A stretch of 64,000 nucleotides of DNA, from positions 2,100 to 66,099 of the forward strand of contig CAZHTD010000010.1 of NCBI GenBank assembly GCA_964535675.1, in the 5' to 3' direction. The notes under the pieces are model-generated. The model searched no databases, was not told the origin of the DNA, and saw only the letters and a list, made by a program, of their open reading frames with translations. Shown one piece after another: positions 18,194 through 55,204 of this stretch (within the stretch, counting starts at the first letter, position 1; the number at the start of each line of letters is the position of its first letter). The translations under genes were made by a program, and so were the position numbers. The DNA is from an uncultured Bifidobacteriaceae bacterium. GTDB lineage: Bacteria > Acidobacteriota > Vicinamibacteria > Vicinamibacterales > UBA2999.

Positions 18194-18987
18194 GACTGCC
18201 GCCGGCGCGCCGACGGTTCGCCCAGCACTTTCTCGAGCCGGCCTGGGTGGCCAAGGTGCTCGCAGCGGCAGACCTCACCGCCGACGACCGTGTCCTTGAG
18301 ATCGGGCCCGGCTGCGGCGCGCTCACCCGTCCGCTCGCCACGCGGGTCGCGCGCGTTATCGCCGTCGAGGTGGACCGTGACCTCGTTGTGGCGCTGGAAA
18401 CCGCGGCGCTCCCCGGGGTGCAGGTGGTCTTGAGCGATTTCCTAGATGTCGACCTCGAGCGGCTGCTTGCCAACGAACCCCTGCCGTGGCGCGTAGTCGC
18501 TAACCTTCCCTACAACGTGGCCACGCCGATCCTATTTCGCCTGCTCAAGGCCAGCGACGGCGGCCGCCGGTGCCAGGATGCCACCCTGATGCTGCAAACC
18601 GAGGTGGCTGACCGCCTGCTCGCTGGGCCTGGCAGCCGTGCGTACGGGTCGCTCACGCTCCAGGTCGGGCTCGACGCCGACGTGCGGTGCCTACTCACGC
18701 TGCCCCCAGGGGCGTTCCGGCCGGCCCCGAAGGTGAGCTCCACGGTGGTCCGCCTGACGTTTCGGGCACCGCGGGCCGAAGTGGGCGACCGGGCCGTGTT
18801 CACCCGCCTCGCTCGAGGCCTCTTCCTGCACCGTCGCAAGATGCTCCAGAATGCCTTGGCGCCAGTCGCCCTGACGCTGAGTGCTGATCCGACCCAACTG
18901 ATTGAGAGAGCTGGACTTGACGGGTCACGGCGCCCTCAAACCCTCACCGTCGAGGATCTGGCCCGGCTTTCGAGAGCTGTGCTATAG
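18190..18987 (+). CDS. rsmA: 16S rRNA (adenine1518/1519-N6)-dimethyltransferase
   Basis: 265 aa. FAQHFL start, SAM motif VLEIGPGCGALT, and NLPYNVATPILF. Confidence 0.93.
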   Translation: MRLPPARRRFAQHFLEPAWVAKVLAAADLTADDRVLEIGPGCGALTRPLATRVARVIAVEVDRDLVVALETAALPGVQVVLSDFLDVDLERLLANEPLPWRVVANLPYNVATPILFRLLKASDGGRRCQDATLMLQTEVADRLLAGPGSRAYGSLTLQVGLDADVRCLLTLPPGAFRPAPKVSSTVVRLTFRAPRAEVGDRAVFTRLARGLFLHRRKMLQNALAPVALTLSADPTQLIERAGLDGSRRPQTLTVEDLARLSRAVL

Positions 18988-19135
18988 TCCTTTCACGTTA
19001 ACTTGTTAATCCCTCCCTGTTTCCAGGCTTCCCCAGCAGCCTGACCGAGGCGTGGTTACGCCCGCTGCGCAGGATCCACCCGCCCGGGTGTTCCTCCCGC
19101 GTGTGTTCGCTTGAGGCGGCTGGATTTTCGGTTCA

Positions 19136-20827
19136 ATGACACAGATCGACGGCACGCAGCCCACTGCGGCTGCGCTTGAGATCGTGCCCCTCGGAGGGCT
19201 GGGCGAGTTCGGCATGAACATGCTGGCGATGACCTGCGAGGACACCACCATCCTTGTGGAAGCCGGCGTTATGTTTCCGGACGCAGACCAGCTCGGCGTG
19301 GATCTCATCATCCCCGACCTCACGTACCTAGCAACCTGCCGACCGAAGGCGCTCGTCCTCACCCACGGCCACCAAGACCACATCGGTGCCGTGCCGCACG
19401 TGCTGCCGCTGGTGGACGGCCCGGTACACGGGACGCCGTTTACCCTAGCGCTCGTCGAGCCGAAACTCGCCGAGCACGGGCTCGAAGCCGGCGGCCGGCT
19501 GCGTCCGGTGGCCGCCGGCGAGACGGTGACAATCGGCCCGTTCGCCGTGGAGTTCGTGCGGGTCACGCACAGTATGCCCGACTGCGTGGCGCTGGCCGTC
19601 ACGACGCCGGTCGGCACCATCGTTCACACCGGCGACTTCAAGATCGATTACACACCCGTCGACGGGCAGCGCTTCGACCTGCATCGCTTCGCCGCCTTGG
19701 GCTCGGCGGGGGTGCTGGCACTGCTCAGCGACAGCACCAACATCGATCGGGCGGGCGTCTCGGGCTCTGAACGCGACGTGATCCCAGCGTTCGAGGAGCT
19801 GTTCGCCGCCACACGCGGCAAGCTGGTCGTGGCCACGTTCTCGTCGAGCCTGTACCGGATCCAGTTGCTGGTGGACCTGGCCCGGCGCTTCGGACGCAAG
19901 GTGGTTTTCGCCGGCCGCAGCCTCGTCCAGAACACCGAGATCGCCCAGCGCCTCGGCTACCTCCGCCTCCCCGACGGGCTGCAAATCCGCGACGCCGACG
20001 TGCCCGACCACCCGCCGGACGAGGTGCTTTGCATCACCACCGGCTCACAGGGCGAGCCACGGGCGACACTTTCGCGGATCGCCATCGACGACCACGGCCA
20101 CATCCGACTCGCGCCAGGCGACACGGTGGTCTTCTCGGCCCGCGCCATCCCCGGCAACGAGAAGGCCATCGCCCGGACGATGAGTCACATTGCCCGTCGC
20201 GGCGCCGAGGTGGTCACCTGCGCCACCCGGCGAGTGCACGTGTCGGGCCATGGCAGCGCCGAGGAGCTGCGGCTCATGCTCTCGCTCGTCCGGCCACGTG
20301 TCTTCGTCCCCGTTCACGGCGAGTACCGCCAGCTGGCCGCCCATGCCCGCCTAGCCGAGCAAGTGCTCTGCGCCGACGGCACAGGCGTCGAAGTGCTGCT
20401 CGCCCAGGACGGCGACCGCCTCGTGTTCGACGCCGAGAGGGCACGCATCGATGGCGCCGTCTCCGCCGGGCGGGTGCTCATCGACGACACGCGACTCAGC
20501 GAGGTGGGCGATCACGTGCTGCGCGACCGCCGCCATCTCGCGGGCGACGGCGTGGTCATCGCGGTCGTGGCCATCAACCATCAGGACGGCTCGCTGATCG
20601 GTACGCCCGAACTCGTGGCCCGCGGGTTCGTGCTCGGGGCCGACGACGAGGCCGTCCTTTTTGATGGCGCAGCGGGCGTTATCGGCGAGTGCATCGCGCA
20701 GTCGCGCGTCGAGGAACGCACCGACCAGGGGCTCATCACCGAAAAGCTCCGGATCGAGTTGCGTCGGTATTTCAAGAAGCGCTCCGGGTGCCGGCCGATG
20801 GTCCTGCCGGTACTGCTGGAGATTTAG
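19136..20827 (+). CDS. rnj: Ribonuclease J
   Basis: 563 aa. Beta-lactamase/beta-CASP architecture (LTHGHQDHIG, HTGDFK, HVSGHG). Confidence 0.95.
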   Translation: MTQIDGTQPTAAALEIVPLGGLGEFGMNMLAMTCEDTTILVEAGVMFPDADQLGVDLIIPDLTYLATCRPKALVLTHGHQDHIGAVPHVLPLVDGPVHGTPFTLALVEPKLAEHGLEAGGRLRPVAAGETVTIGPFAVEFVRVTHSMPDCVALAVTTPVGTIVHTGDFKIDYTPVDGQRFDLHRFAALGSAGVLALLSDSTNIDRAGVSGSERDVIPAFEELFAATRGKLVVATFSSSLYRIQLLVDLARRFGRKVVFAGRSLVQNTEIAQRLGYLRLPDGLQIRDADVPDHPPDEVLCITTGSQGEPRATLSRIAIDDHGHIRLAPGDTVVFSARAIPGNEKAIARTMSHIARRGAEVVTCATRRVHVSGHGSAEELRLMLSLVRPRVFVPVHGEYRQLAAHARLAEQVLCADGTGVEVLLAQDGDRLVFDAERARIDGAVSAGRVLIDDTRLSEVGDHVLRDRRHLAGDGVVIAVVAINHQDGSLIGTPELVARGFVLGADDEAVLFDGAAGVIGECIAQSRVEERTDQGLITEKLRIELRRYFKKRSGCRPMVLPVLLEI

Positions 20828-26947: not shown

Positions 26948-27841
26948 TTAGTTGTCTGTCTTGCGGTGCTGCTCGCGCACGAGCACATCGCGCCACCAAG
27001 TCGCATCGTCGAAGAGATCGTCGATAGGCCCCTCACGGGTCAGGCGATCGCGGATCTCGGTAAGGCGTGCGGTGAGCGCATTCAGCGCGTCGCTGATGGC
27101 ATCCGCGTTACCCGCACACACATCCCGCCAGATCCCTGGCGAGCTGGCCGCGAGTCGCGTGGTGTCCGCCAGCCCCCCGCCGGCGAGTGACAGCCCCGCG
27201 GTCTGCACCTCCTGGCCCACCACTCCCATCAGCGCGCTGGCCGCCAGCTGCGGCAAGTGGCTCACAAAGGCCATGACACGGTCGTGCTCGCCCGGGTCCA
27301 TCCGGCGCGGCCGCGCGCCCAGTCCGCGGGCGAACGCCTCGACCTGTCCCACCGGGTCGTCTGGTGTATCAAGAGTGGGCGTGAGAATCCACGGCCGCTC
27401 AAAGAAGAGCGTCCCGCGCGCGTGGACGAAGCCGCTCTTGGCCGCGCCCGCGATGGGATGGCCGCCGACGAAAGTTAAGCGGTCTGGGAGGCCCCTGGCC
27501 GCTTCGAGCACCTGCCGCTTCGTACCGCCAACGTCGGTCACCACTGCCGATCCGGGCAGGTCACCGGCCAACGACTGCAGGATTGCGACGTTCTGGCCAA
27601 CCGGCGCGGCTAGGACGAGCAGGTCGACGCGCCCGAGCGCGCCCACCGACGGCTGGCCCTCATCGACGGTGCCCCGTGCCAGCGCACTCCCCAACACCTC
27701 GGGCCGGTCGACACCCACCAGCCGCACGCCCGGCCACCGAGTCCGCACCCCGAGGGCGATCGACCCACCGATCAGGCCGAGCCCCGCGACGGCAACGCAC
27801 TGAAACGGAGGCCCGTCTCCGGTGTGCGCTACGGCGCCCAT
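26948..27841 (-). CDS. tyrA: Prephenate (or arogenate) dehydrogenase
   Basis: 297 aa. Rossmann motif [10 protein letters not shown], then [15 protein letters not shown] and SHLPQL motifs. It overlaps the DAHP synthase stop by 13 nt. Confidence 0.9.
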
Positions 27842-28875
27842 CCCCTGCGGCCGACCGGTTCAAGGCAGATGCTCCGGCCGATGGCCGGCGCGATGATCCG
27901 CAGCTCGGACATCAGCCGGTCGAACTGTTCCGGGAACAACGACTGCGCCCCGTCGCTCCACGCGTGGTCCGGATCGTTGTGCACCTCGATGAGCAGCCCA
28001 TCGGCACCAGCCGCCACGGCCGCCCGCGCCAAGTTCGCCACCATATCTCGCCGGCCTGCGCCGTGGCTCGGGTCCGCGACGATGGGCAGGTGGCTTAGCT
28101 TCTTCACGACCGGAATCGCCGAGACGTCGAACGTGTTCCGGGTGGCGGTCTCGAACGTCCGAATGCCCCGCTCGCACAGCATCACGTCGTTGTTGCCACC
28201 GGCCAGGATGTACTCCGCCGACAGGAGCCACTCCTCGATCGTGGCCGAGATGCCGCGCTTGAGCAGCACCGGCTTGCGCACCTGGCCCAGCTCCTTCAGC
28301 AGGCTGAAGTTCTGCATATTCCGCGCGCCGATCTGGTAGATGTCGGAGTACTTGCCGAGCAGGTCGATCTGGCTGGCGTCCATCACCTCCGAGATCACCT
28401 TCAACCCGTGGGCGTCGGCCGCCTCTCGCAGCATGCGCAGGCCCCTCTCGCCGTGCCCCTGGAAGCTGTACGGTGAGCTCCGCGGCTTGAAGGCCCCGCC
28501 TCGCAGCACCTTGGCCCCGGCCTTCTTCACCGCGGCGGCGGTCGCGTGCACCTGCTCGTCGGTCTCAGCCGAACAGGGGCCTGCCATCATAATCACTTCG
28601 TCACCGCCGATGCGGACATCGTCCATCGTGACAACCGTGGCCTCGGGCTTGAATGTCCGGCTGGCCCGCTTGTAGGGCTCGGTGATCCGAAGCACCTCAT
28701 GCACGCCGTCGAGAATCTCGACGAGCCCGGGGTCCAGCTTCTGCGCGCCCACAACGCCCAGCACAGTCCGGGTCGCGCCCGACGACCGGTGCACGTCCAT
28801 CCCCATTTCGATCAGCCGCGCGATGACGGCGTCGACCTGCACCTCGCTGGCGCGTTCCTTCATGACCACGACCAT
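27829..28875 (-). CDS. 3-deoxy-7-phosphoheptulonate (DAHP) synthase, type I-beta, with an N-terminal ferredoxin-like regulatory domain
   Basis: 348 aa. Core motifs ([28 protein letters not shown]) preceded by a roughly 70 aa ACT/FL-like domain, as in Thermotoga-type DAHPS. Confidence 0.93.
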
Positions 28876-29207
28876 GACTCACTCTCCAGCTTCTTTAACC
28901 GACGGGATCCCACCCCCCGGCTCTCTCTTTCATTCCGTTCCGCGCGCCGCGCTTCGTCGAGGATCCGCTCGAAGATCCTCACCACCGCTTCAGCCGTGAG
29001 AGGTCCGGCCAACTCGGTCGTCGACCGCCTGACGCCGTCGAGCACCCGCGCCTCCCGGGCCGGCTTGTAGACGGCCTGCCCCGTGCTGTACTTGATCTCA
29101 CCGATCTCCACGGCGCATGCCACTCGCACGTTCAGCAGTCGGACCAGCTGCGCGTCAATCACGTCGATCCGGTTGCGCAGCTCCTCGATCGTCAGGATTT
29201 CAGCCAT
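28860..29207 (-). CDS. Chorismate mutase (AroQ class)
   Basis: 115 aa counted from ATG 29207. [30 protein letters not shown]...[10 protein letters not shown] is the AroQ helix pattern. It overlaps the trpA 3' end by 16 nt. Confidence 0.85.
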
Positions 29208-29977
29208 CGCACGTACTCCTCCACACGGGGAATCAGCTCCGGCGACGTGCCGGCATCCGCAATCACACTCACCAAGGCGCTGCCGACCACGGCAGCGTCG
29301 GCCCACCGGCCGACCTCCCGTACGTGCTCGCGCTTCGAGATACCAAAGCCGAGGGCCACCGGCAGGTCGCTGACGCTACGGATGCGCGCCACCATCTCAC
29401 GGGCGCCGTCGGCGAGGATCTCCCGGGCACCCGTGACGCCCAGACGAGAGATCGCGTACAAAAACCCGCTGCCGAGGGCAACTGCCTGACGTAATCGAGC
29501 GTCAGATGTGGTCGGACTGAGCAGCAGAATTGTATCAATCCCCTGTCTCGCCATCAGCTCACGTAAGTCCCCCACCTCTTCTATGGGCAGGTCAAGCGCC
29601 AGCACGCCGTCGACCCCCGCCGCCGCCGCCCGCTCGGCGAACCGTTCGGCCCCGAAGCGCAGGATCGGGTTGGCATAGCTGAACAGCACGATCGGCGCGC
29701 GTACCGATCCGCGCAGGCCCGCCACCATGTTCAGCACTCCCTCGAGCGTCACGCCGGCGGTGAGGGCTCTCTCGGTCGTGCGCTGAATGACGGGACCGTC
29801 GGCCAGCGGGTCCGAGAACGGCACCCCCACTTCAAGCACGTCCACCCCGCTCCGATCCAACGCTCGCAGAATCTGGTCGCTGCGGCCCATGTCGGGGTCC
29901 CCGGCCATCACATACGTGACCAAGCCGGGCTCGGGCCTCGCGCGCACGCGTTCGAACGTCGCGGCCAGGCGGCTCAT
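29192..29977 (-). CDS. trpA: Tryptophan synthase alpha chain
   Basis: 261 aa. Contains [18 protein letters not shown] and GFGIS motifs. Confidence 0.95.
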
Positions 29978-31179
29978 CGCCTCGCCTCTACAACGCTCTG
30001 GACGTCCTTGTCGCCCCGCCCCGACAGGTTCACGAGCACTAGGCCACTGGGGGGCAGCGTGCCGGCCAGTGTCGCGGCGTGCGCGACGGCATGCGACGAC
30101 TCGAGCGCCGGCAGGATGCTCTCGTATCGCGCGAGCAGGCGGAAGCCCTCGAGCGCCTCGTTGTCCGAGGCATGCACGTACTCGGTCCGGCGCTGCTCAC
30201 GGAGCCACGCGTGCTCGGGCCCGACGGCCGCGTAGTCGAGGCCGGCCGAGATCGAGTGTGTCGGCTCGATGTTGCCGGCCGCATCCTGCAGCACGAACGT
30301 CCGCGTTCCCTGCAGCACGCCGGTGCTGCCGCCCGCGAATCGTGCGGCGTGGTGGCCCGCCACGATGGCATCGCCGCCCGCCTCCACGCCGACTAGCCTT
30401 ACCGACGGATCGTGGATGAACGCGTCGAAAATTCCAATTGCGTTGGAGCCGCCACCTACGCAGGCCACCACCACATCCGGCAGGCGGCCCGTCCGTTCGA
30501 GCACCTGCCGCCGCGCCTCCTGCCCGATGATCGACTGGAACTCCCGCACCATCAGCGGGTACGGGTGAGGCCCCAGTACCGACCCCAGCAGATAGTAGGT
30601 GTCCGACACGTTGGCTACCCAGTCGCGCATGGCCTCGTTGATCGCGTCCTTCAGCGTCCGGCTCCCGGCGTCGACCGGCCGCACGCTCGCCCCCAACAAC
30701 TCCATGCGCACGACGTTGAGTGCCTGCCGCCGCATATCCTCGGTGCCCATGTAGACATCACACTCGAGTCCAAGCCGCGCGCAGGCGGTGGCCGTCGCCA
30801 CCCCGTGCTGGCCGGCGCCCGTCTCGGCCACGACACGGCGCTTCCCCATCCGCCGGGCGAGCAGTGCCTGTCCCAGCGCGTTGTTGATCTTGTGCGCGCC
30901 GGTGTGACAGAGGTCCTCGCGCTTGAGCAGGAGGCGGGCGCCACCGGCGTGGGCCGCCAGCCGCTCGGCCTCGTAGAGCGGCGTGGGCCGCCCGACGTAG
31001 TGCCGCAGGAGCCGGCACAATTCCTCCAGGAATCCGGCGTCCTCGCGTGCCGCCAAATAGCCCTCGGTCAGCTCCTCGATGGGCGCCACGAGCGTCTCGG
31101 GTACATAACGCCCGCCGTACGGGCCGAAGTAGCCGCGTTCGTCCGGATCACGCCGCCCGAACGCGTGCTGGTCCACCAT
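29974..31179 (-). CDS. trpB: Tryptophan synthase beta chain
   Basis: Contains [22 protein letters not shown] (PLP lysine) and [11 protein letters not shown] 31179 shares one nucleotide with the trpF TGA (TGATG). The ORF track extends 20 codons further upstream. Confidence 0.96.
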
Positions 31180-31805
31180 CACGTTGTTCCCGCCCCTTGA
31201 AACGCCCGGCGCGCTGCGTCCACGAAACGCGCCATCCAATCCTGATCCTTCCGCCCCGGCGAGGCCTCCACACCAGACGACACGTCAACGCCCCACGGCC
31301 GCACTCGCGCGATGGCTTTGGCCACGTTGTCGGGTGCCAAGCCGCCAGCCAGGATCATCCGGCCCGCGACGGCCAGTCGCGCCGCGCCCCCCCAGTCCAC
31401 CGTGACACCGGTGCCTCCGCGGCGTTCAGGGTCGTGCGCGTCGAGTAACAACACGGTTTCGGGCGGCCAGTACGCCCGCACTCGCCCCGCTGTCTGCAGC
31501 GTTGCCGAGCGGAAGATCGGCCAGGTCACCGCGCGCGCTGCAACCGCCGTCTCATCGCCGTGGAGCTGGACGGCGCCGAGGCCCACGGCCTCGGCCGTCT
31601 CGTTTACCTCCGCCATCGGCGCGTCCACGAACACGCCGACGGGCATGACTGACGAGGGCAGGGCCGCCACGATTTCGGCCGCCGCCGCGCGATCGACCGC
31701 CCTGGGGCTTCGGGGCCAGAACACAAGCCCGATCGCGGTAGCGCCGCACGCCGCCGCCGCCCGCGCGTCCTCGGGCCGCGTGATCCCGCAGATCTTGATC
31801 AACAT
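31179..31805 (-). CDS. trpF: Phosphoribosylanthranilate isomerase
   Basis: [14 protein letters not shown]...[10 protein letters not shown]...QLHGDE. ATG 31805 overlaps the trpC stop. Confidence 0.9.
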
Positions 31806-32611
31806 CAGGCCGGCACCCGCGCGCAAACCAGCGAGGCAACGGCTGCCGCCGGATCGGGTGCCGTCATACACCGCTCGCCGATTAGGAACGCCTGATAGCC
31901 GGCTGCGGCGAGCCGTTCGAGCTCCTCGACCGAACCCAGCCCGCTCTCGCTCACGCTAACCACACCCGGCGGCAGCCGCGCCGCCAGTCGGAACGAGGCG
32001 TCGACGTCAACCGCCAGCGTCCGCAGATTCCGGTTATTGACGCCTACGATGCGTCCATCCGTCTCGATCGCGCGGGCCAGATCTTCCTCGTCGTGGACCT
32101 CCACCAGCGTCGCCAACCCCAGCTCCCGCGCCCGCACGCCCAGCGCCTTGAGCTCGGCCTTCCCCAGCGCCGCGACAATCAGCAGGACGGCGTCGGCCCC
32201 GGCCGCGCGTGCCTCGAGCAGCTGGTACGGGTCCACCACGAAGTCCTTGCGGAGCAACGGCACGCCCACCTGCGCGCGAACGGCTTCGAGGTGTGCTAGG
32301 GCGCCGTCGAAGAACGTCGGCTCGGTCAGCACCGAGATGGCCACTGCGCCGCCGCGCACGTACTGCGCGGCAATCCCGGCCGGGTCGTACTCGTCGAGCA
32401 GCACCCCGCGCGACGGCGAGCGCCGCTTACACTCTGCGATCACGTTCACACGGCCTGGCATCCCGAGCGCCTGTTCAAACGCCTCCCCGCGCGGGCTCTT
32501 CATCGCAGCTCGCCGTTCGAGCACCGCGTCGGGCTCGCGGGCACGCCGCTCCTTCACGATGGTCCGCGTCGCAGCCACGATCGCCCGCAGCAGGTCGGGG
32601 GCCGTGCTCAC
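31805..32611 (-). CDS. trpC: Indole-3-glycerol-phosphate synthase
   Basis: 268 aa counted from GTG 32611, which overlaps the trpD TGA as GTGA. Contains VIAECKRRSPSRG, LRKDF, EVH and GVNNRNL motifs. The 530 aa track ORF is an artefactual upstream extension across trpD. Confidence 0.93.
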   Translation of the reverse strand: MSTAPDLLRAIVAATRTIVKERRAREPDAVLERRAAMKSPRGEAFEQALGMPGRVNVIAECKRRSPSRGVLLDEYDPAGIAAQYVRGGAVAISVLTEPTFFDGALAHLEAVRAQVGVPLLRKDFVVDPYQLLEARAAGADAVLLIVAALGKAELKALGVRARELGLATLVEVHDEEDLARAIETDGRIVGVNNRNLRTLAVDVDASFRLAARLPPGVVSVSESGLGSVEELERLAAAGYQAFLIGERCMTAPDPAAAVASLVCARVPA

Positions 32612-33627
32612 GCCACTCCTCCCGCCACCGAGCAGACCGCCATCTTGTCGAGCGTGGCCATCGCACGCCCGGCATCGATGGCCACGGCTGCCTGCGCGAT
32701 CCCGTCGCGCACGCTGTCGGCCTTCCCCGCGACAAGCAGCGCCGCGCCCGCGTTGAGCAGCACCACGTCCCGTGCCGCGCCCTTCTCGCCGCCCAGCACG
32801 GCACGGACGATCGAAGCGTTCGTCTTCGCGTCGCCGCCACGCAGATCGTCGATGGTCGCCGCCGGTAGGCCGACATCGGACGGGTGCAGGTGGAACGTGT
32901 GCACCGCGCCGTCGCGGCACTCTGACACCTTGCTGAAGCCGGTCGTTGACAGCTCGTCGAGCCCGTCGGCCCCATGCACGACCCAAGCGCGCTTGGAGCC
33001 GAGCTGCAGCAGCGCGCGCGCCAGCAGCTGGGTCAGCTCCGGCTGCGGCACGCCGACCACCTGGCGCGTGGCCCCGACCGGATTGGTGAGGGGCCCCAGC
33101 AAGTTGAACACTGTCCGGATGCCCAACTCCTTCCGGATTGGCCCTGCGTGCCGCATCGACGGGTGGAACGTCGACGCGAAGAGGAAGGCGATGCCGGCCT
33201 CCCGCAGGCAGCACTCCACCACTGCGGGTGCCGCGTCCACCTTCACGCCAAGTGCCTCGAACACGTCGGCGCTCCCGCAGCGGCTCGACACCGAACGATT
33301 GCCGTGCTTGGCCACCGTCACACCGCAGGCCGCCACCACCACTGCGGCGGCCGACGAGATGTTGAACGTGCCCGACCGGTCGCCGCCTGTGCCGCACGTG
33401 TCAACAACGTCCCCCTCGGACGTTAGTCGGACGGCGTGCGCACGCATGGTTCGCGCGAAGCCCACGATCTCGGCCGGGCGCTCGCCCTTGGCGGCGAGCG
33501 CCGCCAGCAGGCCGGCCAGCTGCGCGGGTGCGGCCCGCCCCGCCATGACCTCGGTCATGGCGGCAGCCGCCTCGTCCTCGGTCAGGTCGCGGCGGCGCAC
33601 GAGCTTGTCGATGAAGGGCGTCAGCAT
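32608..33627 (-). CDS. trpD: Anthranilate phosphoribosyltransferase
   Basis: 339 aa. Contains DTCGTGGDRSGTFNIS and KHGNRSVSS motifs. Confidence 0.95.
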   Translation of the reverse strand: MLTPFIDKLVRRRDLTEDEAAAAMTEVMAGRAAPAQLAGLLAALAAKGERPAEIVGFARTMRAHAVRLTSEGDVVDTCGTGGDRSGTFNISSAAAVVVAACGVTVAKHGNRSVSSRCGSADVFEALGVKVDAAPAVVECCLREAGIAFLFASTFHPSMRHAGPIRKELGIRTVFNLLGPLTNPVGATRQVVGVPQPELTQLLARALLQLGSKRAWVVHGADGLDELSTTGFSKVSECRDGAVHTFHLHPSDVGLPAATIDDLRGGDAKTNASIVRAVLGGEKGAARDVVLLNAGAALLVAGKADSVRDGIAQAAVAIDAGRAMATLDKMAVCSVAGGVA

Positions 33628-33630
33628 GCG

Positions 33631-34191
<561 letters not shown>

Positions 34192-34194
34192 GAC

Positions 34195-35661
34195 CTACCC
34201 TGCCAACCCCTGCTGGGCCAGCTCCAGCGCGGTCAGCACGGCGCGGGCCTTCGCCCGCGTCTCCTCGTACTCGGTGGCAGGCACCGAGTCTGCCACGATG
34301 CCCGCGCCGGTCTGCACGAACGCCCGCCCGCCCTCGATCACGACTGTCCGGATCGCGATGCAGAAGTCCAAGTTCCCCGCAACGTCCAGGTACCCGACTG
34401 CGCCCGCGTACACCCAGCGGCGCCGATTCTCGAGATCAGCAATGATCTCCATTGCGCGGATCTTCGGCGCTCCCGACACCGTGCCCGCCGGGAAGCACGC
34501 CGTGAGTGCGTCCAGCCGGTCGCGGCCCTCGGCCAGCGTCCCCTCCACAATCGACACCAAGTGCATTACGTGCGAGTAGCGCTCGATCTCCATATAGGTC
34601 GACACCTGCACACTGCCGTACGACGAGACGCGCCCCACGTCATTCCGTCCGAGGTCGACGAGCATCACGTGCTCGGATCGCTCCTTCACATCAGTTGACA
34701 GCTCCTCGGCCAGCCGCTGGTCCTCCTCGTCGGTGGCCCCGCGTGGCCGCGTGCCGGCAATCGGGTGGGTTTCCACTTGGGTGCCCTCCACGCGAACCAG
34801 CATCTCGGGTGATGCGCCAACGATCGCCCGCTCGCCCATCCGCAGGAAGAACATGTACGGCGCCGGGCTCACGTAACGGAGCGCACGGTACGCCGTGAAG
34901 GCATCGACTGAAAACGGCGTCTCGAAGCGCTGTGACAGCACCACCTGGAAAATGTCGCCAGCTGCAATGTGCGCCTTCGCCCTGTGGACCATCTCCTCGT
35001 AGCGCTCGCGTGTCACGTTCGAGGTCACCTCAAGCGGACCCGCCTTGGGTGGCTCCGGCATGGAGAGCGCCCGCTCGAGTTCGCGCTCAAGGAACGTGAT
35101 CTTGGTGCATACGAACCGGTACAGCGTCTCCAAGTCCTTATCGGGCGTGATGCGCGCGTTAGCGATGATCAGGATCCGGTGGCGCACGTGGTCGAACGCG
35201 AGCACCGTATCGCAAAGCATGAAGCCCGCATCGTCCTCGTCTGACGCCCCAGGCGGCATGGTGACCGGCTCAAACCAAGCGGCGGCGTCATAGCCCAGGT
35301 AGCCTACAGCGCCGCCCGTGAACCGCGGCAACCCGGGCACATGCGACGCACGGAACTCGGCCATGGTGCGTCGGAGCACCTCGACGAACGGCTCGTCGGT
35401 CTCCTGGCACTCGCCGCTGCGGTCGGCGATGGTCCGCCCCCGGCGGGAGCGCAGCACCAAGAACGGATCCTTCCCCAGGAACGAGTACCGTGCCATCCGC
35501 TCGCCGCCCTCGACCGACTCGAACAGGAAAGCGTGGTCGGAGTGCTCGGCAATCTTCATGAAGGCCGAGACCGGCGTCAGGAGGTCGGCGATGATCTCTT
35601 TGTACACGGGCACAAACGTGCCCCGGGCGGCCAGCTCCTGGAACTCCTCGAAGCTGGTCAT
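34195..35661 (-). CDS. trpE: Anthranilate synthase component I
   Basis: Chorismate-binding domain (GAPKIRAMEII, GAVGY, LESVEGG-like FESVEGG). ATG 35661 abuts the aroD/E stop. The track start at 35727 lies inside the upstream gene. Confidence 0.95.
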   Translation of the reverse strand: MTSFEEFQELAARGTFVPVYKEIIADLLTPVSAFMKIAEHSDHAFLFESVEGGERMARYSFLGKDPFLVLRSRRGRTIADRSGECQETDEPFVEVLRRTMAEFRASHVPGLPRFTGGAVGYLGYDAAAWFEPVTMPPGASDEDDAGFMLCDTVLAFDHVRHRILIIANARITPDKDLETLYRFVCTKITFLERELERALSMPEPPKAGPLEVTSNVTRERYEEMVHRAKAHIAAGDIFQVVLSQRFETPFSVDAFTAYRALRYVSPAPYMFFLRMGERAIVGASPEMLVRVEGTQVETHPIAGTRPRGATDEEDQRLAEELSTDVKERSEHVMLVDLGRNDVGRVSSYGSVQVSTYMEIERYSHVMHLVSIVEGTLAEGRDRLDALTACFPAGTVSGAPKIRAMEIIADLENRRRWVYAGAVGYLDVAGNLDFCIAIRTVVIEGGRAFVQTGAGIVADSVPATEYEETRAKARAVLTALELAQQGLAG

Positions 35662-37088
35662 GCTGCCAACCTCCGCTCGGCTGCTGCGGCCATCACCCCG
35701 GGGGGGGGCGGCCGGCCGTGCCACCACGCGAACTGGCGCTCGGCCTGTGCCACTAGCATCGGCAATCCACCCAGCACCCGGCAGCCCGCCGCCGCGGCCT
35801 CCTTGAGCAAGGGGGAAGGTCGGCGGCCGTAGGTCAGGTCGTAAACGAGCCGGCCGTCAAAGGGCCCACCCGGTAGCGGCGATTTCTCCGCGTCGGCGGC
35901 TCCGCCGAGCGGTGTAGTGTTGACGAGCAGATCCCACGAGCCGGCCGGCGGTGGCCACACTCTCGCCGCCACGCCGAAGGCGTCGGCCAGGGCACGGGCC
36001 GCGTCCATCCCCCGGGCGTGGACGGCCACCCTCGCCCCCGCCTCGCGTAGCGCGTAGACAACTGCACGCGCCGCGCCGCCCGCACCGAGCACCGACGCCC
36101 TAACACCAGCCAGCTCCGCCTCGAAGGCGACTTCCAGCGGTTCGAGGAACCCGTCAGCGTCGGTGTTGGTAGCAGACCATCCGCTGACGTCACGCTTGAG
36201 CGTATTGGAGGCCCCGATCGTCGTGGCCCGCCTGTCGGCCTCGGCGGCGGCTCGCAGTGCGTCGACCTTGAAGGGGATCGTCACGCTCGCGCCAGCGAGG
36301 CCAATGGCACTGGCGAACACCTGGAAGTCGTCGAAGTCGGCCGCCGGCAGGGGGACGTACACCGCCTCGGTGCCTGCGGCCGCCAGTGCTGCGTTGTGCA
36401 TGGCGGGCGACAGCGAGTGCGTCACGTTGTTGCCGACCACGCCGTACACGGTGCTGTCCCGTGCGTCGTGGAACCGAAACTCCCCGAGCATGCGCGCGGC
36501 CGGAACCTGTCCCAGCATTACGCCGTCACCCGCATACGTCCAGCACGACCCGTACCAGCGGGCCAGAAGCCGTGTCGGCAGCCCGGTCACGCCCAGCCCG
36601 ATCACCACGGCCGCACCCGCGCGCCCGATCTCGCGCAGCGCGAGGGTGTCGGCCAGTCGAGACGGCGTCACCGCCACCTTGATCAATCCGGCGCCGGTCT
36701 GGCGCATCGCCCGCGCCAGAGCATCCAGATCCGTCGGCACGGCGTCAAAGTCGTGAAGTGAGACGACGACGCACGCCGCGCCGGCGCGCACTAGTTCGTC
36801 GAAGCCCGCCCGGAACTCCACGTCCACCCACTCAGCACCGCCCTCCAGCGCGGCTCGGAGCAGCGTCCGCCGCTCCTCCTCGCTGCCGTCGAACCCACCG
36901 CCCTCCCAGCGCGCCCGGCACGTCACGATCACTGGACGCCGACGACCGGCGAGCGCTCCGGCGACGTCGGGGCGGTCTACCAAGTCGAGGCGTAACTCGA
37001 CCAAGTCAGCGCACGAGCGGTCGCGCGCCGCGATCAGGTCGGCCATCGTGGGCCCCGTTACGGTCTCGCACAGCAGCGTGTCGGTCAT
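35658..37088 (-). CDS. Bifunctional type I 3-dehydroquinate dehydratase / shikimate 5-dehydrogenase
   Basis: 476 aa counted from ATG 37088. The N-terminal half carries type I DHQase residues (VSLHDF His, LIKVAV Schiff-base Lys). The C-terminal half is AroE (GVVGNNVTHSLSPAMHN, SVTIPFK, NTD, GAGGAARA). It is one uninterrupted frame. Confidence 0.9.
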   Translation of the reverse strand: MTDTLLCETVTGPTMADLIAARDRSCADLVELRLDLVDRPDVAGALAGRRRPVIVTCRARWEGGGFDGSEEERRTLLRAALEGGAEWVDVEFRAGFDELVRAGAACVVVSLHDFDAVPTDLDALARAMRQTGAGLIKVAVTPSRLADTLALREIGRAGAAVVIGLGVTGLPTRLLARWYGSCWTYAGDGVMLGQVPAARMLGEFRFHDARDSTVYGVVGNNVTHSLSPAMHNAALAAAGTEAVYVPLPAADFDDFQVFASAIGLAGASVTIPFKVDALRAAAEADRRATTIGASNTLKRDVSGWSATNTDADGFLEPLEVAFEAELAGVRASVLGAGGAARAVVYALREAGARVAVHARGMDAARALADAFGVAARVWPPPAGSWDLLVNTTPLGGAADAEKSPLPGGPFDGRLVYDLTYGRRPSPLLKEAAAAGCRVLGGLPMLVAQAERQFAWWHGRPPPPGVMAAAAERRLAA

Positions 37089-37096
37089 CACGGCAC

Positions 37097-37129
37097 AAAA
37101 AAAGCCCCCGCAGCCAGCAGCTGGGGGGC
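37097..37129 (-). terminator. Intrinsic terminator acting as the attenuator of the aromatic operon
   Basis: On the minus strand: GCCCCCCAGC-TGCTG-GCTG(C)GGGGGC followed by TTTTTTT. That is a 10 bp G/C-rich stem with one bulge, a 5 nt loop and a T7 tract. It lies 8 nt before the aroD/E ATG and 36 nt after the leader stop codon. Confidence 0.75.
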
Positions 37130-37165
37130 TCGAACTCTTCGTCTCGATCGGCGCGCGTCGCCTGG

Positions 37166-37249
37166 CTACCCCCCGTGTGCCACAGACCGGTACCACCACC
37201 AGGAACTGGTGTGGGTCGGCTGCGGAACGAGGATAAACAAGAACGGCAT
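37166..37249 (-). CDS. trpL: Trp-rich leader peptide (27 codons): MPFLFILVPQPTHTSSWWWYRSVAHGG
   Basis: Found by hand; it is below the ORF-track size cut-off. ATG at 37249, three consecutive TGG codons at 37201-37193 followed by TAC, and TAG at 37168-37166. It sits between a promoter-like element and the terminator. Confidence 0.7.
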   Translation of the reverse strand: MPFLFILVPQPTHTSSWWWYRSVAHGG

Positions 37250-37262
37250 CGACTCAAGTTGG

Positions 37263-37292
37263 ATGCTAGCGGACGGGGAGGGCTCCTGTCAA
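37263..37292 (-). promoter_or_regulatory. Sigma70-like promoter candidate for the leader and aromatic operon (TTGACA-18 nt-TAGCAT)
   Basis: On the minus strand: TTGACA (37292-37287), an 18 nt spacer, then TAGCAT (37268-37263). The predicted transcription start would leave only about 10 nt before the leader ATG, so this is tentative. Confidence 0.4.
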
Positions 37293-37360
37293 TTCCGAGG
37301 GGCCGCTCGGCTTGCGGAATCAGTAATTTACACGTACTCTTCAACGACGATCCACTGCCC

Positions 37361-39193
37361 ATGAAACGTTTCCTGCTTGCGGCCTGCACGGTGCTGGCAC
37401 TGGCCGCCCTCACCGGCGTGTCCGCCCAGTCAGAGACCTTCCCGGTCGATGAGCTGAGCCCCGGCATGGTCGGCACGGGCCGGACGGTGTTCGCGGGCGA
37501 CCACCTCGAGGAGTTTGAGGTCCATATCCTCGGCGTCATGCGAAGCGTCATCGGCACGCGTCGTGACCTCGTTCTGGCCAGGCTCGAAGGCGGCCCACTC
37601 GCCGAGACCGGGGTGATCGCCGGTATGAGTGGAAGCCCCGTGTACATCGACGGCCGGTTGCTCGGTGCTGTCTCCTACTCGCTGGGCAACTTCGCTACCG
37701 AGCCGATTGCCGGCATCACACCGATCGGTGAGATGCGCGACGCCGCCGCGCTGACCAGCGCGCGCCTGCGCGCCACGCAGGTAGATCTCGATCTGCCGAT
37801 CACGCCCGCGGGCCTCGAGACCTCACTGCGCCAGGCCTTCTCGTGGCTCAAGCCGTTTGCCGCCAGCCCGGCTGACGTGCGCGTGCTCGGGGACACGGCG
37901 CTGCCTGCAACAATGGCCACGCGGCTGCGCCCCATCGCCACGCCGATCACCATCGGCGGTTTCGACGCATTGACGATTGATCAGTTGCTCCCAGCGTTCC
38001 GGGCGCAGGGGCTGGTGCCAGCGATGGTGCTGGGCGCCGCGCAGGAGGCACCCGCCCCCGAGCAGCCGCTCCGGCCCGGGGACCCGGTGGGCGTCGCGCT
38101 GATGCGCGGTGACCTGGAGTTCGGTGCCACGGGCACGGTCACGACCGTGGACGACGACACCGTCTATGCCTTCGGCCACCCGTTCTACAACCTCGGCCCC
38201 ACCCGCTTCCCTATGACGCGGGCCTACGTGCACGGCGTGCTGCCGAGCCTGGCCTCCTCCTCTAAGCTGGCCAGCATGGGCGCGGTGATCGGCACTGTCT
38301 CACAGGACCGTTCGACGGCAATCGCGGGCACGCTGGGGCCGGGCCCGGAGATGATCCCGGTGACGCTCGCGCTGCACTCCGACCGTAGCGATGCCCGGAC
38401 CTTCGAGCTGGAGATCGTGCAGGACCAGCTGATGACACCGCTTCTAGCGTACCTGGCAGTGCTGAATACGCTCAGCTCGTACGAGCGTGCCAACGGCGTG
38501 GCCAGCTTCGAGATTCAGGGCACGGCCGATATTGCCGGTTACGGCCGGCTCACGTTCAACGATCTCTTCTCCGGCGACCAGTCATCGGTTGGCGCGGCGA
38601 CCGCCGTCATCGGGCCGATCAACATCCTGCTGCGCAATGCCTTCGAGGACGTGCGCATCGAGTCGCTCGACATCACCATCGATGCCAGCGAGGAGCCTCG
38701 GCAGGCCACGCTCGAGCGCGTCTGGGTCGACCGTGCGCGGCCGCGTCCCGGTGACACGATCACCCTCAACGCACTGCTGCGCACCTACCGCGGCACCGAG
38801 GTCGTCGAGTCGCTGCCGCTCGAGATCCCGGCCAGCGCCCGCGGCACGCTCTCATTGATGGTGGCCGACGGCACCGCACTGTCGTTGTGGGAAGCACGGG
38901 AGTTCCAGACCGCACCGCTACGGACGCGCAACCTGTCGCGCATGATCGCTGTCCTCAACGAATCCCGCCGCAACGACCGGCTCTATGTCCGTCTGCTCGG
39001 CAACGGGCTGGGTGCCATCGTCGAGGGCGAGGCGCTGACGTCGTTGCCGCCGTCGGTGCTGGCCGTGGTGGAAGCTGACCGCGAGGGTGCGGGCACCTCG
39101 ACGATCCGCATCGCGTCGCTCGGGGAATGGGCGATCCCCCTCGGCCAAGCCGTGACCGGCTCCCGCACGCTGAGCCTCATACTTGACGACTGA
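37361..39193 (+). CDS. Secreted SpoIVB-type (S55) serine peptidase domain protein
   Basis: 610 aa counted from ATG 37361, with a signal peptide (MKRFLLAACTVLALAALTGVSAQ). It has the GMSGSPVYIDGRLLGAVSY catalytic-serine motif of S55/SpoIVB-like proteases, followed by a long C-terminal region with no motif I recognise. The track ORF (36758) is an upstream artefact. Confidence 0.8.
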   Translation: MKRFLLAACTVLALAALTGVSAQSETFPVDELSPGMVGTGRTVFAGDHLEEFEVHILGVMRSVIGTRRDLVLARLEGGPLAETGVIAGMSGSPVYIDGRLLGAVSYSLGNFATEPIAGITPIGEMRDAAALTSARLRATQVDLDLPITPAGLETSLRQAFSWLKPFAASPADVRVLGDTALPATMATRLRPIATPITIGGFDALTIDQLLPAFRAQGLVPAMVLGAAQEAPAPEQPLRPGDPVGVALMRGDLEFGATGTVTTVDDDTVYAFGHPFYNLGPTRFPMTRAYVHGVLPSLASSSKLASMGAVIGTVSQDRSTAIAGTLGPGPEMIPVTLALHSDRSDARTFELEIVQDQLMTPLLAYLAVLNTLSSYERANGVASFEIQGTADIAGYGRLTFNDLFSGDQSSVGAATAVIGPINILLRNAFEDVRIESLDITIDASEEPRQATLERVWVDRARPRPGDTITLNALLRTYRGTEVVESLPLEIPASARGTLSLMVADGTALSLWEAREFQTAPLRTRNLSRMIAVLNESRRNDRLYVRLLGNGLGAIVEGEALTSLPPSVLAVVEADREGAGTSTIRIASLGEWAIPLGQAVTGSRTLSLILDD

Positions 39194-53690: not shown

Positions 53691-53765
53691 GCGGGAGTAG
53701 TTCAGAGGTAGAACGCGAGCTTCCCAAGCTCGATGTCGCGGGTTCGATCCCCGTCTCCCGCTCCA
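53691..53765 (+). tRNA. tRNA-Gly (anticodon CCC), CCA encoded
   Basis: Hand-folded cloverleaf:
- acceptor GCGGGAG / CTCCCGC
- D stem GTTC / GAAC
- anticodon stem CGAGC / GCTCG with loop TTCCCAA
- T arm GCGGG-TTCGATC-CCCGT
- discriminator T, then CCA. Confidence 0.93.
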
Positions 53766-55129: not shown

Positions 55130-55204
55130 GGGCGCTTGGCTCAGTGGTAGAGCATCGCCTTCACACGGCGGGGGTCAGTGGTTCGAATCCACTAGCGCCC
55201 ACCA
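55130..55204 (+). tRNA. tRNA-Val (anticodon CAC), CCA encoded
   Basis: Hand-folded cloverleaf:
- acceptor GGGCGCT / AGCGCCC
- D arm GCTC-AGTGGTA-GAGC
- anticodon stem TCGCC / GGCGG with loop TTCACAC
- T arm AGTGG-TTCGAAT-CCACT
- discriminator A, then CCA. Confidence 0.93.

Follow-up and report, generated by a model that had tools for sequence, protein, structure and literature searches.

In the trpL leader of Escherichia coli and Salmonella (RF00513), a short open reading frame (ORF) with tandem Trp codons is combined with three helices (1:2, 2:3 and 3:4) and a U-tract directly upstream of the first biosynthetic gene, and its stop codon lies at a point where segment 2 is masked by a ribosome terminating there. 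Other E. coli attenuators, i.e., those of thr and ilvGMEDA, carry in one leader codons for several amino acids of a branched pathway. In Bacillus subtilis, the trp genes are embedded in the aro supraoperon aroFBH-trpEDCFBA-hisC-tyrA-aroE, and sensing depends on the TRAP protein and its binding to (G/U)AG repeats. TRAP and T-box mechanisms are used in Gram-positive bacteria (PMC6614838). The actinobacterial trp attenuators, i.e., Corynebacterium glutamicum trpL and the Streptomyces venezuelae trpE leader, contain "complementary triples" that are common to the antiterminator and the terminator (PMC1262725). Attenuators also exist before common-pathway genes, as described for the C. glutamicum aroR leader (Phe-Tyr-Phe), which lies upstream of aroF, encoding DAHP synthase (PMC11802643). 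Here we analyzed a stretch of 64,000 nucleotides from an uncultured bacterium of the Vicinamibacterales (Acidobacteriota; contig CAZHTD010000010.1, positions 2,100 to 66,099), hereafter called the window. On its minus strand, an operon for aromatic amino acid biosynthesis is preceded by a leader that is, very probably, a classical ribosome-mediated (leader-peptide) transcription attenuator sensing charged tRNA-Trp.

The leader sits in a 270-nt gap between divergent genes, with a Peptidase_S55 gene beginning at 37361 on the plus strand and the aroD/E gene, the first of the operon, beginning at 37088 on the minus strand. Because the flanking genes are divergent, the leader terminator cannot belong to any upstream gene. 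The elements of the leader are the following.

37263-37292, minus strand: sigma-70-type promoter found by consensus scan, with the -35 element TTGACA at 37292-37287, an 18-nt spacer and the -10 element TAGCAT at 37268-37263
37166-37249, minus strand: leader ORF of 27 codons plus TAG, MPFLFILVPQPTHTSSWWWYRSVAHGG, read from the sequence, with ATG at 37249-37247 and TAG at 37168-37166
37190-37201, minus strand: regulatory codons UGG UGG UGG UAC (Trp-Trp-Trp-Tyr), the proposed ribosome stall site, with three TGG codons at 37201-37193 and then TAC, read from the sequence and from conservation
37227-37248, minus strand: region 1, the anti-antiterminator strand, with a core UUAUCCUC (37236-37229) that pairs with region 2 GGGGGUAG when the ribosome is absent, in the minimum free energy (MFE) fold
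37168-37181, minus strand: region 2, the antiterminator 5' strand, with GGGGGGU (37174-37168) pairing with GCCCCCC (37129-37123) and GGCA (37181-37178) pairing with UGCU (37119-37116)
37119-37129, minus strand: region 3, the terminator 5' arm GCCCCCCAGCU, common to the antiterminator and the terminator, from folds and covariation
37097-37115, minus strand: region 4, the terminator 3' arm GGCUG(C)GGGGGC (37115-37104) with U7 (37103-37097), from hairpin energy and covariation

The promoter, TTGACA-18-TAGCAT, is one of only two promoter-like sites in 12 kb in a consensus scan in which 0.7 would be expected, and TTGACA-18-TAnnnT was found at the equivalent place in every relative with upstream sequence read. 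Transcription would start at approximately 37256, giving a 5' untranslated region (UTR) of only about 6-7 nt ahead of the leader ATG. A leaderless leader mRNA was considered and ruled out, because 10-23 nt separate the -10 element from the ATG in relatives. In 620 kb of the window and related loci, counting both strands, the string TGGTGGTGG is found 28 times, and because 21 of these 28 occurrences are leaders, the Trp run is beyond chance. Two further TGGTGGTGG strings are present in the window, at 30465-30473 (trpB) and 33333-33341 (trpD), both on the minus strand; the one inside trpD is out of frame and reads Val-Val-Val, not Trp codons.

The terminator, whose hairpin has the loop GCU, begins 36 nt past the leader stop codon and ends 8 nt ahead of the aroD/E ATG (37088). 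The hairpin has a folding energy of -23.4 kcal/mol (z = -3.8), a stability reached by none of 200 shuffled sequences; a simple consensus terminator scan does not report it, owing to the bulged C. The MFE fold of the whole leader has an energy of -80.7 kcal/mol (z = -3.7). Regions 1 and 3 are alike in being pyrimidine-rich, regions 2 and 4 in being purine-rich. The stop codon UAG (37168-37166) abuts region 2, in which a G6 run (37174-37169) is complementary to the C6 run (37128-37123) of region 3. An initial annotation of this DNA had placed the leader ORF with its TGG TGG TGG TAC codons and TAG stop, the terminator with its T7 tract and the promoter at these same minus-strand coordinates, and our reading and scoring of the sequence bear out all three. 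It had also proposed pairing of the G6 and C6 runs as the antiterminator; their complementarity stands and is supported by covariation, but the helix itself consists of G6U:GC6 plus GGCA:UGCU, and the box is longer in the family. Absent from the initial annotation was the region 1:2 helix, which completes the four-segment design. As a side observation, the terminator stem ends 16 nt ahead of the aroD/E ATG, and a refolded hairpin might also influence translation initiation.

In the mechanism that we infer, the polymerase would start at the sigma-70-type promoter, and the 27-codon leader would be translated while transcription proceeds. Segment 1 would be provided by the early pyrimidine-rich leader codons, segment 2 by the purine box at the ORF end (G6U), segment 3 by the GC6 arm, and segment 4 by the 3' arm with U7. 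When Trp is plentiful, the ribosome would reach the UAG and cover region 2, regions 3 and 4 would pair, and transcription would stop 8 nt before aroD/E. If the leader is not translated, regions 1 and 2 would pair and the terminator would form again. When charged tRNA-Trp is scarce, the ribosome would stall on UGG UGG UGG, and possibly also on the following UAC, thereby keeping region 1 away and leaving free region 2, which begins 18-19 nt downstream. The free region 2 would capture region 3 before region 4 is made, and the polymerase would read through to aroD/E-trpEGDCFBA-CM-DAHPS-tyrA (CM, chorismate mutase; DAHPS, DAHP synthase).

The leader resembles trpL of E. coli and Salmonella in its short ORF with tandem Trp codons, its 1:2, 2:3 and 3:4 helices and U-tract, a stop codon placed so that a terminating ribosome would mask segment 2, and its location directly upstream of the first biosynthetic gene. 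There is, however, no sequence or structure homology, RF00513 being unmatched at E up to 10, so that it is an analogue and not a homologue. The window leader also has 27 codons rather than 14, with three Trp codons and a Tyr codon near the tip of the 1:2 hairpin; the aroD/E fusion is first in the operon; CM, DAHPS and tyrA are included; and the host phylum is Acidobacteriota. With the actinobacterial attenuators it shares a high-GC host, double or triple UGG codons and GC-rich terminators with U-tracts, the triples here being GAAGAGGC / GCCUCUUC / GAAGAGGC. The motif sequences differ, however, and here the leader precedes a supraoperon with common-pathway and Tyr-branch genes and has a conserved Tyr beside the Trp run; the Vicinamibacteria leader family appears to be independent of the actinobacterial attenuators. 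Like aroR, it is a likely ribosome-mediated attenuator before common aromatic-pathway genes with mixed aromatic codons, but aroR has no Trp codons and is Phe-responsive, whereas here one Trp-run leader would serve both common-pathway and trp genes. The Bacillus supraoperon likewise embeds trp genes with tyrA and common-pathway genes behind a terminator/antiterminator switch; there the sensor is TRAP, whereas here it would be the translating ribosome, (G/U)AG repeats are absent, and gene order and content differ.

The folding states of the leader were compared with the states that the mechanism predicts. The MFE fold of the window leader, which represents the ribosome-free state, contains both the 1:2 helix and the terminator. 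Blocking a footprint at the stop codon hides region 2, and the fold again contains the terminator. When the ribosome is placed on the last Trp codon instead and the RNA is folded before its 3' arm exists, the terminator 5' arm pairs with the box in all 33 sequences folded; in the window, this nascent-RNA state gives the G6U:GC6 helix plus the outer GGCA:UGCU helix, an antiterminator duplex of -16.6 kcal/mol. The spacing of the elements was assessed with ribosome footprint sizes taken from general knowledge. In the window, the box begins 17-18 nt past the last Trp codon, outside a stalled ribosome, and it abuts the stop codon, inside a terminating ribosome. Across the Vicinamibacteria-type loci, the position of the stop codon ranges from 10 nt within the box to 18 nt past its end. 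In equilibrium folding with footprints blocked at each Trp codon, the antiterminator never appeared and the terminator always won. Since the terminator is favored at equilibrium, the choice between the two must be kinetic, as in E. coli.

The window AroD/E protein has thousands of homologues, of which the named ones are from Vicinamibacterales. Related loci were taken from a scan of species-representative genomes (among the matches listed, which did not include the closest relatives) and from eleven exact-protein look-ups. Together with the window this gave 34 loci from Vicinamibacteria-like genomes and assemblies, each with aroD/E followed by trpEGDC and with an AroD/E protein 38-75% identical to that of the window where the N-terminus aligns. 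The same layout was found in all 34, i.e., TTGACA-18-TAnnnT, then a short ORF that carries clustered Trp codons, followed by a purine box, 40-50 variable nt, a terminator and aroD/E. The Trp cluster takes the forms WWWY (the commonest), WRWYW, YWYWYY, WWYY and WWWF; the WRWYW and YWYWYY leaders, as well as an ORF lacking a start codon within range (L001, L003, L009, L041 and L063), were missed by the WW regular expression and identified by reading. The motif TGG(NNN)TGG, expected 0.05 times per 60-nt zone, was found in all 33 loci counted. Tyr adjoins the cluster in 31 of the 33 tabulated loci and is encoded by TAC in some and by TAT in others, and the rest of the leader peptide, like the spacer from box to terminator, varies among relatives. 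Judged from these sequences, the conservation is one of codons and not of RNA sequence. The leader peptides of close relatives read MRFPFSPIVRPVHASFWRWYRFSG and MRHYFRFTSQSAPASYWWWYRSV..., and 15-17 codons precede the first Trp codon in 80 of the 103 family sequences that have an in-frame ATG.

The purine box has the consensus CTGARGRGGC and begins 4-21 nt past the last Trp codon (41-43 nt in the variants L057 and L059). In the family it pairs with GCCYCUUCAG, forming an antiterminator longer than that of the window. The family terminator, GCCUCUUCAGCC...GGUUGAAGAGGC plus a U-tract, lies immediately ahead of aroD/E and has an energy of -18 to -31 kcal/mol in all 33 tabulated loci. Two variant loci from uncultured Acidobacteriota (L057, 3680-3900, and L059, 3690-3910), with aroD/E 34-36% identical, also lie ahead of aroD/E-trpEGDC. 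Their leaders end in ...GWWWRGQTR or ...CWWWRETR, without Tyr, and are followed by an extra hairpin, GGGCGAAUGCCC; their antiterminator strand GGCCGGGG, approximately 42 nt past the Trp codons, pairs with a different terminator, AACCCCCGGCCC...GGGCUCGGGGGUU.

Covariation was found in all three helices. Pairing was counted in two alignments of family sequences (A2, 31 sequences; A4, 55 sequences), with the partners slid by 1-3 columns as control. For the terminator helix 3:4 in A2, 93.3% of cells were paired, compared with 33-60% in the slid controls; seven pairs had changed on both sides, and the covariation score was reached by none of 500 shuffles. The antiterminator helix 2:3, formed by the box and the terminator 5' arm, was paired in 85.3% of cells of A2 (39-55% when slid), with six pairs changed on both sides and again no shuffle of 500 reaching the score. 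These A2 values understate pairing for the window, L081 and L088, which are out of register at the box and at the bulged terminator. In A4, where helix 2:3 was constrained by the use of the box in the search pattern, 96.1% of cells were paired (42-57% when slid), two pairs had changed on both sides and 7 of 500 shuffles reached the score. Finally, helix 1:2 in A4 showed 90.5% pairing versus 41-65% in the slid controls, four pairs changed on both sides and no such score among 500 shuffles.

Individual substitutions followed the same pattern. In L007, L008 and L049, a 5' arm CUCUCCAG in place of CUCUUCAG is accompanied by GGAGAG in place of GAAGAG in both the box and the 3' arm, i.e., compensation among three partners, and in the window, L081 and L088 a CCCCCC arm goes with a G-rich box. 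For ten close relatives, RNAalifold paired codons 6-9 (CCUUCUUCG) with the box, which is the same 1:2 helix as in the window; for the 55-sequence set it chose a helix between the box and the Trp codons instead of 1:2, and the 90.5% given above comes from an explicit count of 1:2 pairs. Alignment with relatives had been proposed in the initial annotation as a check, and it shows that the WWW-type ORF is conserved and that the stems covary.

The leader was also sought in metagenomes with the pattern TGGTGGTGGTAYN{5,12}CTGRRGRGG, i.e., WWWY plus box. Among the 120 matches, 86 were followed by aroD/E and one (L109) by trpE, eight ran off the contig end, and 25 were followed by neither gene. Most of these 25 have no terminator and look like chance matches, and at least four are leader-like on truncated contigs. 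In L109 (1611-1754, minus strand), the family member MVPAGVCGVRNASSYWWWYSSH stands directly upstream of trpE with no aroD/E between, and its near-twin in L101 precedes aroD/E. Conversely, 43 outgroup loci whose aroD/E is unlinked to a full trp set, from Planctomycetota, Spirochaetota, Blastocatellia and others, contained 0-2 weak short ORFs with a Trp cluster, and the layout was present in none of them. Because these loci without trp linkage lack the layout, the leader accompanies the trp genes and not aroD/E. In three other Acidobacteriota (L051, L053 and L056), where aroD/E is followed by trpE-trpG and trpD lies on the opposite strand, no Trp-cluster leader was present within 700 nt upstream, and those lineages must therefore regulate these genes differently. 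The trpL-type logic put forward in the initial annotation is thus supported by conservation (34 of 34 loci and 87 metagenome loci), by covariation, by region 1 and by linkage to trp genes.

Several points weigh against this interpretation. When the ribosome is stalled and the 3' arm is present, the terminator state (-38.3 kcal/mol) exceeds the best antiterminator state (-33.1 kcal/mol) in stability by 5.2 kcal/mol. In the comparison of folding energies that the initial annotation had recommended, the antiterminator forms in the nascent RNA but loses to the terminator at equilibrium. The model requires kinetic trapping and transcription-translation coupling, neither of which is known for this lineage. 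The antiterminator of the window is among the weakest of the family, with 7 + 4 bp and z = -1.8 versus shuffles. The family sequences are kin by descent, so that shuffle controls and p-values overstate their independence. Lastly, no clear Shine-Dalgarno sequence precedes the leader ATG, where there is just a GAG 3 nt upstream, and the predicted 5' UTR is very short. The aroD/E ATG likewise has no clear Shine-Dalgarno sequence (regions read: 37089-37110 and 37250-37270, minus strand).

The same mechanism might report charging of tRNA-Tyr and tRNA-Phe besides tRNA-Trp, which would extend the tRNA-Trp attenuator without replacing it, and which we regard as possible, if somewhat doubtful. A stall at the Trp codons, at the adjacent Tyr codon or at Phe codons in or before region 1 would each free the antiterminator, and one attenuator would then adjust expression of a common-pathway, Trp and Tyr supraoperon to whichever of Trp, Tyr and Phe is in shortest supply. 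This would suit an operon that supplies all three. Such a leader would resemble those of thr and ilvGMEDA; multivalence is suggested here by an enrichment of Tyr and Phe codons. Besides the Tyr codon that adjoins the Trp cluster at 31 of 33 loci, the part of the leader before the cluster contains 14.4% Phe and 5.8% Tyr, versus 0.9% each after it, and only 2.9% Leu despite the pyrimidine-rich RNA. Yet the complementarity of region 1 to the purine box itself favors UUC, CCC and UCC codons; the counts are not independent, since the leaders inherited their reading frame; and the window leader has only two Phe codons and one Tyr codon. Many family leaders begin MPRFFSPF... or MRHSFSFF..., and that of the window begins MPFLF, with its Phe-containing stretch at 37243-37235. 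Codon choice is equally two-sided: TTT and TAT each make up 52% of the leader Phe and Tyr codons, compared with 20% and 31% in the operon genes, and these minor codons would tune the sensitivity of a multivalent leader, but their use could merely reflect weak selection on a tiny ORF. Finally, DAHP synthase, chorismate mutase and tyrA belong to the operon, but pheA does not, and the C. glutamicum aroR leader, with its Phe-Tyr-Phe codons, is unaffected by Tyr supply (PMC11802643).

Other explanations dispense with the tRNA-Trp signal altogether. A terminator/antiterminator pair is common to all mechanisms of this kind, including attenuation driven by a protein or ligand (a T-box, a TRAP-like protein or a riboswitch) with an incidental short ORF, and translation of the ORF, which has no strong Shine-Dalgarno sequence, is a prediction. 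We nevertheless consider such a mechanism very unlikely. Rfam searches of the whole window at the gathering score and of 36900-37450 at E up to 10 matched no family, T-box and RF00513 included, and returned only noise (RcsR1, ncS037) far below threshold; the 168-nt leader has no chain of even three (G/U)AG triplets, where TRAP calls for 9-11 spaced by 2-3 nt and overlapping the antiterminator; the sole long unpaired stretch, from box to terminator, varies in length and sequence; and the conserved part is the in-frame cluster of Trp codons, in variable arrangement and with synonymous Tyr codons. This cluster would also be left unexplained by a constitutively terminated small RNA gene or by a fixed leaky terminator that sets basal expression without any amino-acid response, as would the competition of a conserved box for the terminator 5' arm, the distance between this box and the Trp codons, and the exclusive association with trp operons. 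The unit would indeed yield a transcript of about 160 nt with a strong terminator, which always wins at equilibrium, and attenuator RNA can act in trans, e.g., rnTrpL in Sinorhizobium (PMC6614838), but a role in trans could add to attenuation and need not replace it; we think it highly improbable that the leader has no other function. The least credible explanation, in our view, is a nascent-peptide arrest like that of TnaC, in which free tryptophan would be sensed by the leader peptide within the ribosome. In the main subfamily, the residues around the cluster (ASYWWWY-R/G-TATEGA) do look conserved, but RNA pairing explains this, GCCAGCUA pairing with CUGGUGG and ACUGAAGGGGC being the box; moreover, peptides differ outside the main subfamily, a biosynthetic operon would call for the opposite logic, and the leader terminator is intrinsic and not Rho-dependent.

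The attenuator would control the following genes.

26948-37088, minus strand: operon aroD/E-trpEGDCFBA-CM-DAHPS-tyrA of 11 genes, from NCBIfam matches and junction sequence
37088-35658, minus strand: aroD/E, a fusion of type I dehydroquinase and shikimate dehydrogenase (NCBIfam)
35661-34195, minus strand: trpE (NCBIfam), with its ATG at 35661 overlapping the aroD/E TGA (ATGA overlap)
within 26948-37088, minus strand: trpG, trpD, trpC, trpF, trpB and trpA (NCBIfam)
about 29205-28890, minus strand: AroQ chorismate mutase between trpA and DAHP synthase, read from the sequence, with a counterpart in relatives that matches Pfam CM_2
28875-27829, minus strand: DAHP synthase of the Bacillus/Thermotoga type (NCBIfam)
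27841-26948, minus strand: tyrA (NCBIfam)

These assignments agree with the initial annotation, which had listed DAHP synthase, dehydroquinase/shikimate dehydrogenase, chorismate mutase and tyrA in the operon. The genes overlap or nearly abut, and a consensus scan of the minus strand inside the operon found no promoter-like sites, while terminator-like sites were no more frequent than chance. The genes could plausibly form one 10-kb transcription unit, and the tight packing together with the absence of internal signals suggests that all 11 genes may be co-transcribed under the control of the leader. The initial annotation had spoken of control of the whole aromatic operon; the packing of the 11 genes is in keeping with this, but aroA, aroB, aroC, aroK and pheA lie outside, and the operon is not the whole aromatic pathway.

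The identical 11-gene order, aroD/E-trpEGDCFBA-CM-DAHPS-tyrA, occurs in L093 and L094. In L093, the DAHP synthase (18362-19408) is called as two ORFs, a 93-aa FXD domain and a 201-aa catalytic part, which points to a frameshift, to a pseudogene or to an error in the assembly. In L094, CM and DAHPS lie about 100 nt apart (18463-18572), as do DAHPS and tyrA (19618-19716), at junctions that abut or overlap in the window. Internal promoters or regulatory sites are possible in these gaps; on reading, no leader ORF was obvious in them.

If the interpretation as a tRNA-Trp attenuator is right, it extends the textbook design of trp attenuation to Vicinamibacteria, an abundant, mostly uncultured soil class of Acidobacteriota in which gene regulation is almost unstudied, and it implies that transcription and translation are coupled tightly enough in these bacteria for ribosome-mediated attenuation. 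The understanding of attenuation itself is unchanged by this finding. The initial annotation had taken such leaders to be described only in Proteobacteria and some Actinobacteria, which was too narrow, since Vitreschak and co-workers are said to have predicted leader-peptide attenuators in 2004 also in Bacteroidetes/Chlorobi, Thermotogales and some Firmicutes. For the present phylum, a literature search, which did not take in the broad surveys of Lopatovskaya et al. (2010) and Merino et al. (2008), found no paper on leader-peptide attenuation in Acidobacteria/Acidobacteriota. The leader ORF, purine box and terminator make up a well-defined RNA family without an Rfam match, and a model of it could annotate hundreds of metagenomic trp operons. 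A single leader before a mixed common-pathway, Trp and Tyr supraoperon also raises the testable question of multivalent aromatic sensing.

Some minor observations concern the surroundings of the leader. A second promoter-like element, TTGCGG-17-TACTCT (37312-37340, plus strand), lies upstream of the Peptidase_S55 ATG at 37361, back-to-back with the leader promoter. Relatives carry this divergent element (minus strand GAAGAGTACGTGTAAATTACTGATTCCGCAAG) in the conserved form GATACGGGTAAA...TGAAnCnGCAAG; the score of the element is below the scan threshold. The Rfam scan of the window also identified two tRNA genes on the plus strand, at 53691-53762 and 55130-55201, which are unrelated to the leader.

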